NCBI GenBank assembly: GCA_945788685.1
Contig: CALZMZ010000003.1
Location: 1 to 58,641, forward strand
DNA length: 58,641 bases
Source of the DNA: Thermodesulfovibrionia bacterium
GTDB lineage: Bacteria; Nitrospirota; Thermodesulfovibrionia; UBA6902
Reading direction: 5' to 3'
Made by a program: the position numbers and the translations under genes. The notes beneath the pieces are model-generated. The model was not told where the DNA came from. It made no database searches and worked only from the letters and a program-made list of their open reading frames with translations. Positions 7,492 to 48,622 of the stretch are shown in pieces. Position 1 is the stretch's first letter, and each line of letters opens with the position of its first letter.

Positions 7492-8511
7492 ATGAAAGAA
7501 GTTAAAAAAGTTGAGGTTGAAGATATCAGGGGCTTCAAAAACTATCAAGACTGGCAGCGTTTTTATATGGATATGAACAACGGAGCTTTGATACCGGACA
7601 CTGAAATATGGTCTGACACAGAAATGGTAATGAGCATTAATTCTCTCGGATGTAAAGGAGAAGAAATGGAAAATGGTATTCCGATCGTTGCATTTTTTGG
7701 AGACAGTGCCACTTTCGGTGCAAGTTTTTCAATAGACAGCTGGCCGCGAAATCTTAATATCAGAGGATGTCAGTCCCTCAATGCTGCGGTTGAGGGGTAT
7801 GAAATGGAAAGAGTACTTAATAGATATAATGAAATTTCAGAAAAAGTTAATTTGGCCGGTGTAGTAGTTTATTCCGGTTGGCACAATATTATCTACGGTG
7901 AATCGACCGAGGACTACTGGAGATCGATGCTCGATCAATTCGAAGGCGATCATATACTGGCTTTCTGTACGCTTGCTACATGCCTGACTGAAGAATGCAA
8001 ACATAGGGGTATAGATTCTCTATTATGTTCTGACAGTCCAAGAAAGAATTATGCCAATTATTTCGAATACAACCTGGAAAGCTTGAACAAGAGGTATTTC
8101 AACTTCTGGTGCAACATGGAGCCATCGCTTGAAAATCTTCAAAAGGTTGTAGATGGCGTTCAAAGATATAATAATTTTCTCAAGGAATATTGTTCTGAAA
8201 AAGGCCATGTCCTTATCGACCTTTATTCACAGTTGATTCCTGCTACCTATGAAGATATTCCAAATGATTTTTATGATGTATGCCATCTGCGTCCGGCAGC
8301 TTATCAAAAGATTGGTAAGTATGTGGGAAGCCTGCTGGATATGCCACTGAAAGACTTTCTGAAAAACAGACAGGATAAATATTTTATAGATGTTATTAAT
8401 CCAGTATCCTGTCCCGAAAGATTTGCGTTAACAGAAACACATAATAGTAGAAGGGACAGACAGGGAAATGATAGCGAAGATTTGAGAAGGAATATTTATC
8501 CATTGTGGTAG
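7492..8511 (+). CDS. SGNH/GDSL-family hydrolase (possible glycan O-acyl esterase/transferase)
   Basis: 339-aa ORF with block I 'FFGDSATFG' and block V DxxH as 'YDVCHL'. A strong SD 'agaggagag' lies upstream. Confidence 0.6.
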   Translation: MKEVKKVEVEDIRGFKNYQDWQRFYMDMNNGALIPDTEIWSDTEMVMSINSLGCKGEEMENGIPIVAFFGDSATFGASFSIDSWPRNLNIRGCQSLNAAVEGYEMERVLNRYNEISEKVNLAGVVVYSGWHNIIYGESTEDYWRSMLDQFEGDHILAFCTLATCLTEECKHRGIDSLLCSDSPRKNYANYFEYNLESLNKRYFNFWCNMEPSLENLQKVVDGVQRYNNFLKEYCSEKGHVLIDLYSQLIPATYEDIPNDFYDVCHLRPAAYQKIGKYVGSLLDMPLKDFLKNRQDKYFIDVINPVSCPERFALTETHNSRRDRQGNDSEDLRRNIYPLW

Positions 8512-9469: not shown

Positions 9470-10777
9470 ATGATTGAGGCCAATCAGGATGTTAAAGTAT
9501 TTACGCCTGCTCAGGCATACTGGAACCAGAGAGAGGTGTTAAGGTCAATGAGAGACCGCATCCATGCCTTATCTGATGCAGTTGATAACAAAAGTGATCT
9601 CTGGCCGTATCAGCTTTCACAGTTAATGGCTGCCGCACTTGAGTTCAAACCCGAAGTGATTATTGAACTGGGCCGTGGAAAGGGCAACTCAACATGCGGA
9701 TTTACTGAGGTTGCCAATCATATAAGAAGGCAGGGACATAGATGTGATGTTGTGAGCCTCTGCATATCAGAGGACTGGGAACAAACGACCCAGTGGAAGG
9801 TGATGGAAATTGTTGAAAGAGACTGGTTTGAGCCCCTGAGGGCCCTGAGGGGCAATATTCTGACGTTTGATTATGATTCAATTTTAAAAGGAGCAAAAAG
9901 ATGTCTTGTGTTCTGGGATGCCCATGGATTTGATGTAGCTGAATGTGTGCTCGGTAGAATTCTGCCAAAGATACAAGAGATGGAAAATCTTATCATTATG
10001 CATGACATCTCTGACGGACGATACATTCCTCCTGAAACATCATCTTATAACGGCCAAAGACTTTGGAGAGGAAATGACTGGTCAGGGCCGCGAATACGAC
10101 TCGGATTTATGGATTCCTCGGTTGAACAGGCTGTTGCAATTGTAGACTTTACATCCCGAAACAGGATCCCATTTGATTCTGCAGACCACAGCATTAATGT
10201 AGAAATCGGCAGCGATCCTGTGAAAATGAAAGATATGGAGAATGTCCTCGGTGATCTCTTTAACCTGGGGGCACACTGGTGCTGGTTTACGCTCAATGAT
10301 GCAAAGGGTCCTTTGACATTTCCTGATTTTCAGGCAGATGTCATGAATGATCATCTTGAAATAAACATCACTGAACAGACGCAGATAATGGGAGTTTCTT
10401 TAAACAATGCCGTTTTATCACAGCCTGATCTGGTGGAAGTAATTCAGCGAGTAAACCGTTATGTCAAGATGGAAAAACCAAAGCTTGCAGCACGAATTGT
10501 GGAAAGAGAACTCGGTAATTTAAATGAAAAGAAAGATATTCTGGCAAAGCTTGGAAACACAGACTCAGAAGAGACTAATAAGACAGATCAGAATCAGATA
10601 ATGGGAATTCCTTTAAAAGCTGATGTAACGGAAGCGGTAAAGAGAGTGAACCGTTATTTAGATATAGGAAAATCAGCCCTGGCTTTAAAAATTGTAGAGA
10701 ATGAACTTGGGCATCTTCATGAATCATCTGAAATCCTTGCAAAAATTCAAAATAATGAACATGTTGCAAGTTCGTAA
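9470..10777 (+). CDS. hypothetical protein with a possible CmcI-like methyltransferase fold and a duplicated C-terminal helical module
   Basis: 435-aa ORF with SD 'aggagg'. 'IIELGRGKGNST' and 'LVFWDAHGF...LIIMHDI' resemble the CmcI/cephalosporin-hydroxylase-type fold (weak). Two ~55-aa copies of 'QIMG..L.....V..V.RVNRY......LA..IVE.ELG.L.E...ILAK' occur 71 aa apart. Confidence 0.5.
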   Translation: MIEANQDVKVFTPAQAYWNQREVLRSMRDRIHALSDAVDNKSDLWPYQLSQLMAAALEFKPEVIIELGRGKGNSTCGFTEVANHIRRQGHRCDVVSLCISEDWEQTTQWKVMEIVERDWFEPLRALRGNILTFDYDSILKGAKRCLVFWDAHGFDVAECVLGRILPKIQEMENLIIMHDISDGRYIPPETSSYNGQRLWRGNDWSGPRIRLGFMDSSVEQAVAIVDFTSRNRIPFDSADHSINVEIGSDPVKMKDMENVLGDLFNLGAHWCWFTLNDAKGPLTFPDFQADVMNDHLEINITEQTQIMGVSLNNAVLSQPDLVEVIQRVNRYVKMEKPKLAARIVERELGNLNEKKDILAKLGNTDSEETNKTDQNQIMGIPLKADVTEAVKRVNRYLDIGKSALALKIVENELGHLHESSEILAKIQNNEHVASS

Positions 10778-33960: not shown

Positions 33961-33961
33961 A

Positions 33962-38163: not shown

Positions 38164-38607
38164 ATGGCAAAAAAGAAAGCAGCGAAGAAGAAGGCAGTAA
38201 AGAAAAAAGCAGCAAAGAAAAAGGCAGCTAAGAAGAAAGTAGCTAAGAAGAAAACAGCCAAGAAAAAAACCACTAAGAAAAAAGCCGCAAAGAAAAAGGT
38301 TGCAAAGAAGAAAGTAGCGAAGAAGAAAACTGCAAAGAAAAAAGCCGCTAAAAAGAAGAGAAAACCTAATCCTGCATTTATGAGGCCTGTGAGTATCAGT
38401 GATGCACTGGCACAGATAGTCGGCAGCAAACCTATTCCCAGGACCGAGGTCACAAAAAAGCTCTGGGCATACATTAAGAAGAACAAGCTGCAGGACTCTG
38501 TCAATAAGAGAATGATCAACGCTGATGCCAAGTTGAAAGCAGTTCTCAAGAAAGCCAAGGTATCAATGTTTGAGATGACCAAACTGGTCAGTAAGCATCT
38601 CAGCTAG
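38164..38607 (+). CDS. SWIB/MDM2-domain protein with histone-H1-like Lys/Ala repeat N-terminus
   Basis: 147-aa ORF with SD 'aggagg'. The N-terminus is ~12 tandem A(A/V)KKK pentapeptides. The C-terminal 'RPVSISDALAQIVGSKPIPRTEVTKKLWAYIKKNKLQD' is SWIB-like. Confidence 0.8.
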   Translation: MAKKKAAKKKAVKKKAAKKKAAKKKVAKKKTAKKKTTKKKAAKKKVAKKKVAKKKTAKKKAAKKKRKPNPAFMRPVSISDALAQIVGSKPIPRTEVTKKLWAYIKKNKLQDSVNKRMINADAKLKAVLKKAKVSMFEMTKLVSKHLS

Positions 38608-40254: not shown

Positions 40255-40340
40255 GCCGGAGTGGTGGAATGGCAGACGCGGTGGACTCAAAATCCATTGT
40301 CCGCAAGGACGTGCGGGTTCAACTCCCGCCTCCGGCACCA
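40255..40340 (+). tRNA. tRNA-Leu (anticodon CAA), CCA encoded
   Basis: The acceptor stem pairs GCCGGAG with CTCCGGC. The anticodon loop is CTCAAAA, the variable arm is long, and the T-arm is GCGGGTTCAACTCCCGC. The sequence closely resembles E. coli tRNA-Leu(CAA). Confidence 0.9.
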
Positions 40341-42545: not shown

Positions 42546-43936
42546 AAATAACTGTACTGGGAGCCGGACCCGGAGGATATGTTGCTGCAATCAAGGCTGC
42601 ACAGCTTGGCGCTGAAGTTACGGTAATTGAAGATGGCGAAGTAGGTGGTACCTGTCTGCACTGGGGATGCATTCCTACCAAAACTCTCATAGCATCAGCC
42701 GAGGTTCTTCATAAAATGAAAAATGCAAAGAATTATGGTCTTGAGCTTGAAGGCACGGTTACTCCCAATATAGAAAAAATAGTTGACAGAAAGAACAAGG
42801 TTGTAAGCACACAGACAAAAGGGATACGCGGACTCTTTAAATCATGGGGTGTCAGTTTAATTGAAGGTCGTGGAGTCATTATTGATCCAAAAACAATCCA
42901 GGTGACGCTTAAGGACGGATCAACACAGGATGTTAATACTGACAAAATAATAATTGCAACCGGATCAAGACCGGCCCAGATTCCTGTTTTTCCCTTTGAC
43001 GGTAAAAGGATAATTTCCAGTGATAATGCAGTAAATCCTGATTCAATTCCTGAAAGTTTGCTTATCGTTGGCGCAGGGGTAATAGGGTGTGAGTTTGCGT
43101 TCATATACAAAGAATTCGGTGCTGAAGTGACCATGGTTGAAATGATGCCAAACGCAGTATCAACAGAGGATGAAGAGATCTCACAGATTCTGGAGAGAGA
43201 ATTGAAGAAAAACAAGATCAAGCTCCTTACCAATACAAGTGTAGAAAAAGTGAATGTCAAAGATAATGGTGTTTCTGTGCAGCTTGCCGACGGAAAATCC
43301 ATAGAGGCTGAAAAGGTGCTTGTATCGATCGGACGTGCTGTTAACAGTGAGAACATCGGACTTGAAGATGTGGGTGTTAATAAGGGACAGCGTGGAGACA
43401 TTATTGTAGATGAAAAACTTCAGACAAGCGTTGACGGCATTTATGCAATTGGAGATGTTATTGGTGGTATAATGCTTGCCCATCTTGCTTCAAAGGAAGG
43501 TATCGTGGCTGCGGAAAATGCCATGGGAGGAAACTCAAAGGTCAACTATGATGTTGTGCCCGCTGCCATCTTTACAAGCCCTGAAATAGGTTCTGTAGGT
43601 CTGAGAGAAAAGCAGGTCGCTGAAAAAGGCATAAATTATAAAGTAGGAAGATTTCAGTTCAGGGGACTGGGAAAGGCCCATGCCATGGGTGAAATTTCCG
43701 GACTGTTTAAGATAATTTCCGAACAGGAGTCAGATAAAATACTCGGTGCTCATATCATCGGTGCTCATGCATCTGACCTGGTTCATGAGATTGCAGTAGC
43801 CATGGAAAAAGGTCTGACCGTAAAGGACATCGCACATACCATTCATGCGCATCCAACTCTTGCAGAGGGAATCATGGAAGCTGCAGAAGATGTCCATGAC
43901 ATGGCAATTCACTCACCGAAGCGCGTAAGTTCGTAA
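42542..43936 (+). CDS. lpdA: dihydrolipoyl dehydrogenase
   Basis: 464-aa ORF with FAD motif 'VLGAGPGGYVAA' and redox disulfide 'GGTCLHWGCIPTK'. The C-terminal 'HAHPTLAE' is present. The start overlaps the gcvH stop (ATGA). Confidence 0.9.
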   Translation: MKITVLGAGPGGYVAAIKAAQLGAEVTVIEDGEVGGTCLHWGCIPTKTLIASAEVLHKMKNAKNYGLELEGTVTPNIEKIVDRKNKVVSTQTKGIRGLFKSWGVSLIEGRGVIIDPKTIQVTLKDGSTQDVNTDKIIIATGSRPAQIPVFPFDGKRIISSDNAVNPDSIPESLLIVGAGVIGCEFAFIYKEFGAEVTMVEMMPNAVSTEDEEISQILERELKKNKIKLLTNTSVEKVNVKDNGVSVQLADGKSIEAEKVLVSIGRAVNSENIGLEDVGVNKGQRGDIIVDEKLQTSVDGIYAIGDVIGGIMLAHLASKEGIVAAENAMGGNSKVNYDVVPAAIFTSPEIGSVGLREKQVAEKGINYKVGRFQFRGLGKAHAMGEISGLFKIISEQESDKILGAHIIGAHASDLVHEIAVAMEKGLTVKDIAHTIHAHPTLAEGIMEAAEDVHDMAIHSPKRVSS

Positions 43937-43968
43937 GATCGTAAGCGCGTAAGATATTAAGTTCACTT
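43921..43968. repeat. period-8 tandem array (NNNCGTAA units) spanning the lpdA stop codon
   Basis: The units are gcgcgtaa gttcgtaa gatcgtaa gcgcgtaa gatattaa gttcactt. The lpdA TAA (43934-43936) is the end of unit 2. Confidence 0.7.
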
Positions 43969-44048
43969 CCCCACTTCCTCACTAAAGGCAGATTTTATGT
44001 TAATTTATATGTCAGCGAGTTATATAATTTATTAAGAGAAAAAATGTT

Positions 44049-46084: not shown

Positions 46085-46119
46085 AATTACGAATTACGAA
46101 TTACAAATTTCAAATAATG
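46085..46119. repeat. heptanucleotide tandem array (AATTACG x5, degenerating)
   Basis: The units are aattacg aattacg aattaca aatttca aataatg. The array fills the kdsD-kdsC spacer, and the last unit contains the kdsC ATG. Confidence 0.8.
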
Positions 46120-46644
46120 GATAAAAAAATTATAGAAAAGGCCAGCAAAATTAAACTGCTTATCCTTGATGTAGATGGTGTTATGACAGACGGCAGTATC
46201 ATTCTTGACAATGAGGGGAATGAACTGAAGAGGTTTCATGTAAGGGATGGTCATGGTATTAAAATGCTTGGCAAGGCCGGTATTGAGACCGCTATCATAA
46301 CAGGCAGGCAATCAAAAGTAGTTGAGTTGCGGGCAAAAGAACTCGGGATAAAGGATGTATATCAGAAGATATTTGTTAAATCAGAAATATATGAGCAGTT
46401 ACGCAAAAAATATGAGTGTGAGAATGAAAACATTGCTTTTATGGGGGACGACGTTGTAGATCAGGAACTTTTTAAAAGGGCAGGTCTGACTGCTGCTCCG
46501 GCAGATGCTGAAGAATCTGCAAAAAAATGGGCCGATATAGTATCCGGCAAAAATGGCGGCAGGGGAGCGGTCAGGGAATTCGCAGATATTATTCTTAAAG
46601 CAACAGGCAAGTGGGAACAGGTCTCCGGGGAATCCCTTGGTTAA
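46117..46644 (+). CDS. kdsC: KDO-8-phosphate phosphatase (HAD, YrbI family)
   Basis: 175-aa ORF with HAD motif I 'LLILDVDGVMTDG'. 'AIITGRQS' and 'AFMGDDVVD' are present. Confidence 0.85.
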   Translation: MDKKIIEKASKIKLLILDVDGVMTDGSIILDNEGNELKRFHVRDGHGIKMLGKAGIETAIITGRQSKVVELRAKELGIKDVYQKIFVKSEIYEQLRKKYECENENIAFMGDDVVDQELFKRAGLTAAPADAEESAKKWADIVSGKNGGRGAVREFADIILKATGKWEQVSGESLG

Positions 46645-47179
46645 TCTGCCCACCATAATTACTGTCAGCAGAATCATCATAATTCTTCCATTTGTTCTTG
46701 TTGCTCCCCAAAGTCCGTTTTGGGGCGCCATACTCTTTTCAATAGCAGCCATTACTGACTACTTTGACGGATACTTTGCGCGCAAAACAAAACAGGTCAC
46801 GAAATTCGGAATTCTCCTTGATCCCATAGCTGACAAGCTCCTGGTAATGTCAGCATTAATTCTGTTTGTAGACATGGAATTGATACCGGCCTGGATAGCC
46901 ATAGTAATCATTACGCGGGAGTTCATTGTTACCGGATTGAGAATAGTTGCATTAACAATGGACATAGTCATACCTGCTGAAATGGGTGGTAAAGTCAAAG
47001 TGACCGCTCAGATTGCATCCATAATAACGCTTCTGGTTGACAGGACATTTATTGCCATTGATTTTTATGGTTTGGGAATTCTGTTACTCTGGATTGCCAT
47101 GATTGTGGGACTTATTTCAGGTATTCAGTATTTTATTTTATTCTGGAAAACGATAGACATGACAGACAGGGATTCTTGA
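46637..47179 (+). CDS. pgsA: CDP-diacylglycerol--glycerol-3-phosphate 3-phosphatidyltransferase
   Basis: The CDP-alcohol phosphatidyltransferase motif DGxxAR-x8-G-x3-D-x3-D appears as 'DGYFARKTKQVTKFGILLDPIAD'. The start is placed at TTG 46637 ('LVNLPTIITVSR'), overlapping the kdsC stop. The ORF-track ATG at 46553 would overlap kdsC by 92 nt. Confidence 0.8.
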   Translation: MVNLPTIITVSRIIIILPFVLVAPQSPFWGAILFSIAAITDYFDGYFARKTKQVTKFGILLDPIADKLLVMSALILFVDMELIPAWIAIVIITREFIVTGLRIVALTMDIVIPAEMGGKVKVTAQIASIITLLVDRTFIAIDFYGLGILLLWIAMIVGLISGIQYFILFWKTIDMTDRDS

Positions 47180-47247
47180 GAAGTCAGAAGTAAGAAGTCA
47201 GAAGTAAGAAGTAGGAAGTGAGAAGTGAGAAGTAACGAGTGACAGTT
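47178..47247. repeat. heptanucleotide tandem array (NNGAAGT x10)
   Basis: The units are gagaagt cagaagt aagaagt cagaagt aagaagt aggaagt gagaagt gagaagt aacgagt gacagtt. The array begins inside the pgsA TGA. Confidence 0.9.
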
Positions 47248-47267
47248 TCCATTAAAGAGAGTTTTAA

Positions 47268-47774
47268 ATGAATACAGACTTACTCTTATATATGTTGGTT
47301 CCAGCAGCATTTCTGCTGGGCTCTGTTCCATTTGGACTTATTTTTACGAGAGGATCGGGAGTAGATCTCAGAAGCACGGGCAGCAGGAATATCGGTGCAA
47401 CAAATGTATTAAGAAGTGTCGGTAAAATACCCGCTATACTTACCCTGCTGTTTGATGGATTAAAGGGTGCTGTTCCACTCATCATGTGCAGATATCTTCT
47501 CAGCATGAACTATCCGGAGCTTTCAGCCGGGGAGCTGTGGATGTCTGTTATTGGTTTGACTGTTGTACTGGGTCACATGTATTCGGTCTTTTTAGGATTT
47601 GAAGGTGGTAAAGGGGTTGCCACAGGCATAGGTGTGATAGCTGCCTATAGTCCATCAGTGTCAATTATATTGATAATAATATGGATACTGGTCGCAATAA
47701 TTTCAAAATACTCCTCTCTTGCTGCGCTGGTTTCAGTTGCTGCACTTGGCCGGGAAAGAATCGAGGATGGGTAA
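47268..47774 (+). CDS. plsY: glycerol-3-phosphate acyltransferase PlsY (unusually short C-terminus)
   Basis: 168-aa ORF with 'GSRNIGATNVLR', 'DGLKG' and 'GHMYSVFLGFEGGKGVATG'. It ends 'AALGRERIEDG' directly at the next heptamer array. Confidence 0.8.
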   Translation: MNTDLLLYMLVPAAFLLGSVPFGLIFTRGSGVDLRSTGSRNIGATNVLRSVGKIPAILTLLFDGLKGAVPLIMCRYLLSMNYPELSAGELWMSVIGLTVVLGHMYSVFLGFEGGKGVATGIGVIAAYSPSVSIILIIIWILVAIISKYSSLAALVSVAALGRERIEDG

Positions 47775-47841
47775 GAAGAAAGAAGTGGGAAGTGAAAAAT
47801 GAGAGGTAAGAGGTGAGAAGTACGAGGTGATGGGTAGTGCG
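47772..47841. repeat. heptanucleotide tandem array (TNNGARG x10)
   Basis: The units are taagaag aaagaag tgggaag tgaaaaa tgagagg taagagg tgagaag tacgagg tgatggg tagtgcg. The first unit is the plsY TAA and the last contains the queC GTG. Confidence 0.9.
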
Positions 47842-48622
47842 TAAAAAGGCTATAGTTCTGTTAAGCGGTGGACTTGATTCTGCTACTACTTTTGCGGTGG
47901 CAATTGCAGAAGGGTATGAGGTTTATGCGCTCAGCTTTGATTATGGTCAGAGACATAAAGTGGAACTTGATGCATCCCGGCGCATAGCTGAATATTATAA
48001 AGTAGATAAACATCTTGTTATTGATATCAATTTAAGAGGGATCGGCGGGTCTGCATTAACTTCAGATATTGAGGTTCCTAAGAACAGACAACAGAGCACA
48101 GAATACAGAACGCAAGACACAATTTACAGATCACAGATTACAGATCTTAGATTACAGAAAGAAACACAAATTCCTGTTACCTATGTCCCTGCCAGGAATA
48201 CAATATTCCTTTCATTAGCACTGGCATGGGCGGAGACGTTGAAAGCGTCTGATATTTTCATCGGGGTCAATGCAATAGACTACAGCGGCTATCCTGATTG
48301 CAGACCTGAATATATACAGGCATTTGAAGATATGGCCAATCTTGCGACAAAGGTTTCGGTGGAAGGAGATATCAAGTTTGAAATCCGCACACCGCTTATT
48401 GTACTTTCCAAGGCTGAGATTATAAAAAAGGGGAGGGAACTTGGCGTTGACTATTCGCTTACCTGGAGCTGTTATGATCCGCAAGAATCAGAGAACAGAG
48501 CACAGAACACAGAACATAGACAAGAATACATTCCATGTGGCAAATGTGACAGTTGTATTCTCCGGGCCAGGGGCTTTGAAGAAGCCGGATTATCAGATCC
48601 TCTGAAACCTCCTGTGGAGTGA
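47837..48622 (+). CDS. queC: 7-cyano-7-deazaguanine synthase QueC carrying two in-frame repeat-derived insertions
   Basis: 261-aa ORF with a GTG start and the PP-loop '[12 protein letters not shown]'. '[13 protein letters not shown]', '[11 protein letters not shown]' and the Zn-type cysteines 'SCY...CGKCDSC' are present. Confidence 0.85.
48084..48167. repeat. heptanucleotide array (ACAGANN x12, 84 nt) inside queC, in frame
   Basis: The units are acagaca acagagc acagaat acagaac gcaagac acaattt acagatc acagatt acagatc ttagatt acagaaa gaaacac. The array encodes '[28 protein letters not shown]'. Confidence 0.85.
48481..48529. repeat. second heptanucleotide array (ACAGARC-like, ~6-7 units) inside queC
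   Basis: The units are gcaagaa tcagaga acagagc acagaac acagaac atagaca agaatac. The array encodes '[16 protein letters not shown]', between 'SCYDP' and 'CGKCDSC'. Confidence 0.75.

Follow-up and report, generated by a model that had tools for sequence, protein, structure and literature searches.

Two in-frame heptanucleotide repeat arrays in the queC gene of a Thermodesulfovibrionia bacterium, probably old insertions tolerated in loops of a functional enzyme

Heptanucleotide long simple sequence repeats (LSSRs) are an over-represented class of long simple sequence repeat (SSR) in scattered bacterial lineages, occurring mostly in intergenic regions near the ends of genes (Mrazek 2007, as summarised in PMC4679880). 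The STRR and GGGGA(T/C)T arrays of Cyanobacteria and the GGGAATC arrays of Xanthomonas are heptanucleotide LSSRs in the accounts given there and by Rehm et al. 2015 (PMC4692102). In marine Beggiatoaceae, some Cyanobacteria and Bacteroidetes, TAACTGA arrays commonly end 1 nt before start codons; ten lie inside open reading frames (ORFs) in the stop-free orientation with the peptide period LSVISYQ, including one in an RpoC-like protein, at a surface loop that is variable, and indels between strains come in 7-nt increments (MacGregor 2015, PMC4679880). It is already known, then, that heptanucleotide arrays occasionally occur inside ORFs, surface loops included, and the case described here is of the same kind, with phylum and host gene both new. 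In a 58,641-nt contig of a Thermodesulfovibrionia bacterium (CALZMZ010000003.1; the whole stretch is hereafter the window), queC, the gene for 7-cyano-7-deazaguanine synthase (QueC), carries two heptamer arrays in frame, one of them inside the Zn-binding loop of the enzyme. The two segments are probably old, partly decayed heptanucleotide arrays tolerated in loops of a functional QueC.

The arrays of this locus and its relatives share with the cyanobacterial and Xanthomonas LSSRs their tandem 7-nt units, over-representation relative to other unit lengths, lineage restriction, a mostly intergenic position close to where co-oriented genes start or stop, a unit number that varies between relatives and occasional inverted pairs. 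[quoted passage not shown] Head-to-tail 7-nt repetition beyond chance, over-representation in the lineage and whole-unit copy differences between relatives, by which heptanucleotide SSRs are recognised, were all found. As with TAACTGA, a heptamer array abuts a start codon (here at the kdsD|kdsC junction) and a minority of arrays are intra-ORF and stop-free, with a 7-aa peptide period and a surface-loop position. Unlike TAACTGA, where one unit dominates genome-wide and the intra-ORF hosts are mostly hypothetical proteins, there are many unit families that turn over, and the array-bearing gene encodes a conserved tRNA-modification enzyme, in which two orthologous sites, one of them in a Zn-binding loop, are occupied across a class-level clade. 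The 7-aa length quantisation found across orthologues is not described for TAACTGA (PMC4679880). In the literature examined, no description was found of persistence at two orthologous sites in a conserved enzyme, placement in a Zn knuckle, 7-aa quantisation or in-frame inverted-array hairpins.

Read in a 7-nt register, insert 1 is AACAGAC AACAGAG CACAGAA TACAGAA CGCAAGA CACAATT TACAGAT CACAGAT TACAGAT CTTAGAT TACAGAA AGAAACA CAA and insert 2 is CAAGAAT CAGAGAA CAGAGCA CAGAACA CAGAACA TAGACAA GAATACA TTCCA (Table 1). The period-7 self-match was 0.62 for insert 1 and 0.60–0.64 for insert 2, compared to just 0.21–0.30 at period 3. None of 20,000 shuffles reached the observed period-7 value when the arrays were bounded as in a preliminary description of this DNA, and one of 20,000 did so at 48480–48533 (P ≤ 5e-5). 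Tandem Repeats Finder (TRF) picked up the cleaner parts alone (48124–48158 and 48481–48530, 73–90% matches), and the longest perfect heptamer tracts were 13 nt (1.9 units) and 16 nt (2.3 units) in the first and second array. True 21-nt repeats could be ruled out as the self-match at 21 nt was no higher than at 7 nt; with no 21-nt superperiod, the repeat unit is 7 nt. The coordinates, encoded peptide and placement relative to the Zn cysteines that the preliminary description gave for both arrays agree with the 7-nt register and the structure alignment. Its count of 12 units for array 1 is correct in register, but the last ~10 nt (AGAAACACAA) are a flank conserved in relatives and the array proper therefore comprises ~11 units. 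The inserts are ~50% A overall (insert 1: 49% A, 14% T), and 79% of their residues are polar or charged, with 13% hydrophobic; the core has 41% and 43%, respectively.

The host ORF is QueC, and its predicted structure has the Rossmann-like adenine-nucleotide alpha-hydrolase fold. With the family defined by TIGR00364 and PF06508, the TIGR00364 equivalog profile scored 203.2 bits (cut-off 150.3) and was covered over positions 1–201 of 201; PRK11106 scored 129 bits, below its cut-off of 378, because that profile models the enterobacterial QueC subfamily. A phmmer search matched the Bacillus subtilis structure 3BL5 (E = 9e-30) and 2PG3 (E = 2e-27), the alignment falling into two blocks. Query residues ~82–107 were left unaligned, an extra segment of ~25 aa where 3BL5 and 2PG3 hold 3–8 residues. 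At the second site the spacer between Cys212 and Cys234 has 21 residues compared to 8 in 3BL5. The net gain is 13 aa relative to 3BL5 and 2PG3 and ~9 aa relative to the shortest loops of the same clade, compared to an initial estimate of ~14 added residues. The PP-loop motif SGGxDS is present (residues 10–15, SGGLDS), with S10, G11, G12, D14 and S15 unchanged in 39 orthologues, and the alignment of these orthologues has 76 invariant columns that include the motif and the four cysteines. The conservation of the four ligands suggests that the geometry of the Zn site is preserved, and the enzyme would be active judging from its sequence. Neither a second queC within the window nor another queuosine-pathway gene among the 20 window ORFs scanned with Pfam was found.

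An AlphaFold2 model built from the 39-sequence alignment had a predicted template-modelling score (pTM) of 0.74, with 101 residues at a predicted local distance difference test (pLDDT) value ≥90 and a core of ~90. The best Protein Data Bank matches of the model in Foldseek were 3BL5 (E = 8.5e-15, TM 0.84 normalised to target) and then 2PG3. Residues 72–118 and 221–228 had a pLDDT <50 and no regular secondary structure. Both inserts are thus predicted to be disordered loops on an intact QueC fold, and the low pLDDT and the polar composition fit exposed loops, the point for which the preliminary description had proposed a structure prediction.

The proteins closest to the window QueC (58–79% identity; best match besides the window protein itself, 79%) came from metagenome-assembled genomes (MAGs) with the named sources Nitrospirota, Nitrospiraceae, Thermodesulfovibrionales, Thermodesulfovibrionia, Dissulfurispiraceae and one Deferribacteres. 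At the DNA level, 17 further Nitrospirota queC loci were compared with the window, which gives 18 loci (here carrying the prefix L, and proteins the prefix P). Period-7 arrays occurred at one or both queC sites in 17 of the 18 (both sites, 9/18; L006, none), or, excluding the window, in 16/17 (both sites, 8/17). The 39-orthologue alignment, one of the checks proposed at the outset, has two hypervariable blocks that are exactly the two insert sites, and delimits the inserts there while the four Zn cysteines stay invariant. Among 120 homologues, lengths spanned 6–32 aa for insert 1 and 6–44 aa for insert 2, and orthologues without inserts also exist in the phylum (e.g., the 224-aa P0111). Repeat-free orthologues with equally long loops, the observation that the preliminary description had named as contrary to its reading, were not found among these sequences, because the long loops of the orthologues are heptamer arrays themselves.

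The unit sequences turn over among relatives (Table 1), with CACAGAA-type peptides (RTQNTEH and similar) occurring at both sites even in orthologues that are 60–70% identical, which argues for old residents and not a recent invasion. In CP070632.1, a 3.17-Mb contig, arrays are present at matching junctions and those in queC are decayed. The density of period-7 arrays was 3.2 per 10 kb in the Nitrospirota queC loci, compared to 0.24 per 10 kb in other phyla (13-fold), all of these loci being centred on queC so that the rates are not genome-wide. In 127 kb of Nitrospirota loci there were 40 period-7 arrays, while the other periods from 5 to 11 gave 0–5 arrays (≤0.4 per 10 kb). Neighbouring arrays share units (window arrays at 47179 and 47770; two AAGAACT arrays in L083; the 5′-untranslated region array and an insert-1 arm in L170), which suggests local copying. 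A genome scan yielded ~7 Nitrospirota loci, and a metagenome scan with the clade alignment for close or frameshifted relatives returned, among the matches listed, distant QueC at 53–64% identity and none close. A search with the peptide (HRTQNTE)6 for other genes hosting CACAGAA arrays gave 56 domain-less ORFs of 36–74 aa, which are probably intergenic arrays and were uninformative on hosts.

The segment between the two insert sites is exactly 312 nt long in all 11 loci compared, and synonymous differences dominate over non-synonymous ones in the core (e.g., 41:11, 40:9, 33:9 codons); from these sequence comparisons, queC appears to be a working gene in these lineages because its core is fixed in length and its differences are mostly synonymous. 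By comparison, insert 1 of the window and that of L084, which are equal in length, share 63% identity, and their differences are synonymous in 2 cases and non-synonymous in 18, a ratio that indicates near freedom from protein-level constraint. QueC varies from 242 to 284 aa while its neighbours keep their length (KdsD, 324–325 aa; KdsC, 175 aa; PgsA, 177–186 aa; PlsY, 206–212 aa), shorter calls being KdsC in L085 (126 aa; 175 aa in L084) and PlsY in both L084 (139 aa) and L085 (199 aa).

Insert length changes in steps of 7 aa, the smallest frame-preserving step of a 7-nt unit. In 17 of the 18 closest orthologues insert 1 has 8, 15, 22 or 29 aa or else 11, 18, 25 or 32 aa, the second ladder running through P0018 (11), P0008 (18), P0006 (25) and P0002 (32) in single blocks of 7 aa. 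At the DNA level, insert lengths differ by 21 and 42 nt among L082, L083, L084 and the window, and L083 has three additional CTCAAAA units and one 21-nt module relative to L082. P0060 (282 aa) and P0129 (275 aa), which are >90% identical with 95% identity of core nucleotides, differ in one arm of insert 1, where a single indel spans 21 nt (3 units); a 21-nt (3-unit) indel separates L168 from L169. This quantisation into 3-unit net changes points to out-of-frame changes that arise and are purged. In some cases lengths differ by 3, 9 or 24 nt as well. Between P0044 and P0121, members of a 90%-identity cluster, insert 2 is wholly replaced (120 versus 72 nt; core identity, 90%); P0121 insert 2 was considered as a frameshifted version of that in P0044, and no relation was found in DNA alignment or in alternative frames. 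In a 90%-identity cluster of 76 members without array-type inserts, length was constant among the full-length members listed (12/15; 40/76 read). Length differences in clusters 3 and 4 (P0113, P0120) were traced to start-codon calls and truncations and rejected as array changes.

Table 1. Features of the queC locus in the window and heptamer units at related loci
Feature	Position or locus	Strand	Description
queC (7-cyano-7-deazaguanine synthase)	47837..48622	+	261 aa, GTG start, reading frame intact
Insert 1	48081..48167	+	87 nt = 29 codons, directly after 'IEVPK'; ~11–12 degenerate heptamer units, consensus NACAGAN
Cys212 codon (SCY), first Zn ligand	48470..48472	+	invariant in 39/39 orthologues; aligns to first Cys of 3BL5 C-x8-C-x2-C-x2-C
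Insert 2	48480..48533	+	18 codons, ~6 degenerate heptamer units (CAGARCA), inside Zn-binding loop between Cys212 and Cys234
Cys234, Cys237, Cys240 codons (CGKCDSC), remaining Zn ligands	48536..48556	+	invariant in 39/39 orthologues; aligned with CGECPAC in 3BL5
Intergenic heptamer array AATTACG x 4	46085..46115	+	TRF; fills kdsD-kdsC spacer, abuts kdsC ATG (46117)
Intergenic heptamer array AGAAGT[ACG] x 8–9	47179..47242	+	TRF 8.1 copies, 86% matches; from pgsA stop codon, upstream of plsY
Intergenic heptamer array GAAGTRA / GAGGTRA	47770..47830	+	TRF period 14/7; between truncated plsY and queC
Unit CACAGAR	L084, L083, L087
Unit CTCAAAA	L083, L082
Unit CCCGGAA	L087
Unit AAGAACA	L001/L086
Unit AGTCAGA	L004
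Units GTGACAA and CTCGTTA	L002
Unit CGTCACG	L003
Units CGAGAGA and CACTCGT	L007
Units GAGTWAC and CACTCRT	L168/L169
Units CAGGATR and CATCRTG	L170/L171

The reading of the inserts as tolerated loops, which the preliminary description had offered as its second possibility, is supported by the hypervariable array-bearing sites in orthologues, the core under purifying selection with its four invariant Zn cysteines, the nearly unconstrained inserts and the predicted disorder. Under this reading, the arrays, which belong to the LSSR class in which the lineage is unusually rich, would sit in two solvent-exposed, length-tolerant loops of QueC, where they would be transcribed and translated. The 7-nt unit would be read through all three frames so that three units give one peptide period of seven residues, and the survivors of selection would be arrays with units that are stop-free in every frame and with net changes of 3 units (21 nt). 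In a young, regular array the copy number would shift by replication slippage, which we infer to be the mechanism, or by unequal exchange. Point mutations would later erode the array and variant units could re-expand locally, such that the unit sequence turns over while the array site stays. The encoded peptide would be hydrophilic, disordered and presumably neutral, leaving the PP-loop ATPase core and the four-cysteine Zn site undisturbed.

Several relatives carry inserts of a different architecture. Heptamer arrays in inverted pairs, complementary to each other and with an A-rich loop between them, lie in frame in L007 (4227–4321), L002 (4662–4758), L168 (1748–1831) and L170/L171 (1733–1828), with long, imperfect predicted hairpins. 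In RNA folding, insert 1 of L007 reached -35.4 kcal/mol (z = -4.5) and insert 2 of L002 had z = -3.2. Insert 2 of L168 (2133–2258) is nested, with outer arms of (CAGAACA)n and (GCTCTGG)n and a G/C-rich palindrome at the centre, CCCCCACCCCTCCCTCCCCCTC-GAG-GGGGGAGGGTGAGGGAGGGGGTG, the whole insert being translated in frame as PPTPPSPSRGEGEGGGE. The arrays of the window are direct repeats only, with no inverted partner. A partly palindromic 21-nt module coding for 'LP(T/A)G(Q/K/R)(Q/A)G' was also observed in insert 1 or insert 2 of six orthologues (P0002, P0006, P0009, P0048, P0078, P0106), and 'LPTGQAG' had a single instance in all of the DNA fetched (L083, 3292–3312). The peptide 'IPNPQSP' is recurrent as well and is a translated (CCCCAAT)n, whose reverse complement is the GGGGATT repeat of Nostoc.

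Several points weigh against simple tolerance as the explanation. All intragenic arrays in the compared loci are in queC, with the remainder at gene junctions, and as only queC hosts them, at two sites and clade-wide, 'any permissive loop' is not a full explanation. The paired inverted arrays are not predicted by simple slippage, and hint at another origin or at selection on structure. Lastly, the statistics for the 7-aa spacing of insert-1 lengths (chi-square on length modulo 7, p = 1.1e-8, or p = 0.011 for distinct lengths only; modulus 10, p = 0.0017; the other moduli from 4 to 9, p > 0.15) ignore phylogenetic non-independence.

In a rival reading the arrays would themselves be functional, either at the RNA level, as unstructured A/C-rich tracts or (in relatives) hairpins that tune translation or mRNA stability of kds-pgsA-plsY-queC, or as a disordered spacer or interaction segment of the protein. 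Such a function is unlikely. The arrays do persist at both intragenic sites and at gene junctions across relatives with ~60–80% protein identity, but their unit sequences differ between lineages, the peptide appears near-neutral and some orthologues in the phylum have no inserts at all. The kdsD|kdsC array is conserved in sequence at its place next to the start codon, and a translational role has been proposed for TAACTGA arrays that are placed alike (PMC4679880); the window arrays with at least 24/35 period-7 matches cluster within 2.5 kb. The inverted arrays of relatives fold far better than shuffles, whereas four window arrays, the queC pair included (z = -1.9 and +0.2), fold no better than shuffles, so that structured RNA was rejected for this genome. 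An Rfam scan of the window gave no family match, preQ1 riboswitch included, and just one tRNA (40255–40337). A feedback sensor based on codons decoded by queuosine tRNAs (N/D/H/Y) was considered and set aside, with a fraction of 0.19 in the inserts compared to 0.15 in the core and no clear signal.

A more specific variant, in which the queC of Thermodesulfovibrionia is targeted or selected for arrays, as a cis-regulatory or evolvability module acting on operon translation or as a slow queuosine contingency switch, is decidedly unlikely. If true, it would imply structure- or protein-mediated control of kds-pgsA-plsY-queC translation, or a queuosine switch in populations that salvage preQ0 or queuine. 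On present evidence, a new regulatory mechanism is not revealed.

Phase variation was the leading suggestion of the preliminary description. In this reading, single-unit slippage would reversibly turn queC off and on and give subpopulations with and without de novo queuosine synthesis. Its premise, that only multiples of three units keep the frame, is correct: gain or loss of 1 or 2 units brings array 1 into stops at codons 100–132, and the same changes in array 2 cost Cys234, Cys237 and Cys240, while the closest clade varies in 7-aa steps. Laboratory E. coli can do without queuosine, whose precursors can be salvaged, and off-variants could therefore be viable. Copy number does change over evolutionary time, in 3-unit net changes only. 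For this genome, however, a switch is very unlikely. The (ATCTTTC)n arrays in the hmw1A/hmw2A promoters of Haemophilus influenzae, a proven phase-variable heptanucleotide SSR, have 13–24 units (PMC8262952), compared to perfect tracts of at most 1.9 and 2.3 units in the window. The likeness to that class is one of heptanucleotide repeats whose unit number could alter expression, as non-triplet intragenic SSRs can shift the frame; the proven switches are long perfect tracts in surface or virulence genes of host-adapted pathogens, and the window has degenerate tracts in a housekeeping tRNA-modification gene with no off alleles seen. Both insert lengths are kept in five of six close orthologue pairs despite substitutions (L001/L086, P0003/P0004, P0006/P0009, P0007/P0012, P0011/P0014), the exception being P0005/P0013 (26 versus 22 aa and 25 versus 26 aa), and L085, a locus from another sample found via the exact P0003 protein, has arrays at coordinates equal to those of L084. 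No frameshifted queC occurred among the 17 further Nitrospirota loci at the DNA level, which include no conspecific sequences. The inspected database entries for truncated QueC stop either at the edge of a contig (P0122) or off the arrays, and none at a frameshift within an array. An operating switch is more plausible in the relatives that have young perfect tracts of 3.3–4.4 units than in this genome.

It is highly improbable that the inserts descend from small palindromic mobile elements (of the miniature inverted-repeat transposable element, MITE, or Rickettsia palindromic element, RPE, type) integrated in frame, as opposed to arrays grown in situ by slippage. RPEs are ~150-bp dispersed elements with conserved sequence and encoded peptide, found in frame in housekeeping genes (PMC10969869), and show that in-frame palindromic insertions are tolerable there. 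The hairpin inserts of relatives (insert 1 in L007, L168/L169 and L170/L171, insert 2 in L002) resemble palindromic elements, and the second G/C-rich palindrome nested in L168 insert 2, the 21-nt module at either site in six orthologues and the units common to neighbouring arrays would suit such an origin. Against it, the length changes by heptamer units within an arm, which is SSR behaviour, and the 21-nt module had only one instance in DNA. No dispersed full-length copies were found (none second in the window), terminal inverted repeats and target-site duplications not being specifically searched for. The inserts of the window are direct 7-nt arrays, and without inverted arms and dispersed copies they do not belong with RPE- or MITE-like elements. 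RPEs are nonetheless the best analogy for tolerated in-frame repetitive insertions, given that repetitive DNA is in both cases tolerated in a conserved metabolic gene at positions compatible with the fold. An assembly artefact in the arrays or their copy numbers, or a plain decaying queC pseudogene, is scarcely credible: the sequence comes from a MAG-type contig, assemblies do break at arrays (the partial QueC P0122, on a contig of 14,208 nt, ends at the contig edge in the right arm of insert 1) and the neighbouring plsY is short of its final ~49 codons just where an array begins, but homologous arrays occupy both sites in independent assemblies from many samples, including the 3.17-Mb contig, and the frame is intact and stop-free, with catalytic and Zn residues conserved and synonymous changes dominating the core.

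As old arrays tolerated in loops, the inserts provide a natural example of non-triplet repeats inside an essential-type enzyme gene, where all three frames are read and the 7-residue quantum is visible across orthologues. For the first spacer in the Zn knuckle of QueC, lengths of 9 to 47 residues are tolerated, which is useful for engineering and also for annotation, since such inserts should not pass for frameshifts, inteins or new domains. Heptamer-array biology is extended to the Nitrospirota/Thermodesulfovibrionia, and the arrays mark places where MAG assemblies break or lose sequence.

Across the 58.6-kb window, period 7 is the sole strongly enriched repeat period. Among periods 4–12 in an 84-nt sliding frame, only period 7 exceeds a self-match of 0.56, and 0.55 is reached at 124 positions for period 7, at 12 for period 8 (43.9 kb) and at 9 for period 12 (a Lys-rich repeat at 38.2 kb). 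All arrays at the 24/35 threshold fall between 46.08 and 48.53 kb (46085–48533), and relaxing the threshold brings in two weak AT-rich tracts, at 33961 and 35552. The gene order gcvH, lpd, kdsA, kdsD, kdsC, pgsA, plsY, queC is alike in relatives, CP070632.1 included. Orthologous junction arrays of similar sequence lie between kdsD and kdsC in L001, L086 and L172 (CP070632.1), and arrays at the plsY|queC junction also in L083, L084 and L172, the junction arrays of L172 being at 8177–8228 and 9967–10012. The array downstream of pgsA has the top period-7 score in the window; its AGAAGT[ACG] unit has TAA in one frame and is therefore barred from coding sequence in its present orientation. It shares repeat family D1 with the array upstream of queC, which stops 7 nt short of the queC start and includes the Shine-Dalgarno-like GAGGTGA.

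The plsY gene of the window (47268–47836) seems truncated, as its match to the 206–212-aa PlsY of relatives stops at residue 160. The last ~49 codons, with the final transmembrane helix and a conserved C-terminal motif, are gone and replaced by 'GRERIEDG*', which runs into the array upstream of queC; this may reflect a genuine deletion associated with the array, or else a collapse in the assembly. L084 (2456–2970) and L085 (2350–2970), from different samples, have an identical QueC (P0003) and differ in plsY, which has lost residues ~143–177 internally with a change of frame in L084 and is intact in L085. Octamer arrays were observed in the lpd-kdsA spacer of the window (43924–43983; CGTAAGAT x 4, then CACTTCCC x 2.5), and several period-8 arrays in L002, so that the array-forming process is not strictly 7-nt. 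The ORF at 38164–38607 (+) has N-terminal AKKK-type repeats (15-nt and 75-nt DNA periods, 38167–38358) ahead of a globular domain and resembles a SWIB-domain protein with a histone-H1-like tail; in L172 the syntenic gene, before which lies a masked run of N, is called SWIB. Read on the reverse strand (47125–47331), the AGAAGTA array has no stop codons and gives rise to a spurious ORF of 68 aa (LLLTSHFLLLTSDF...).

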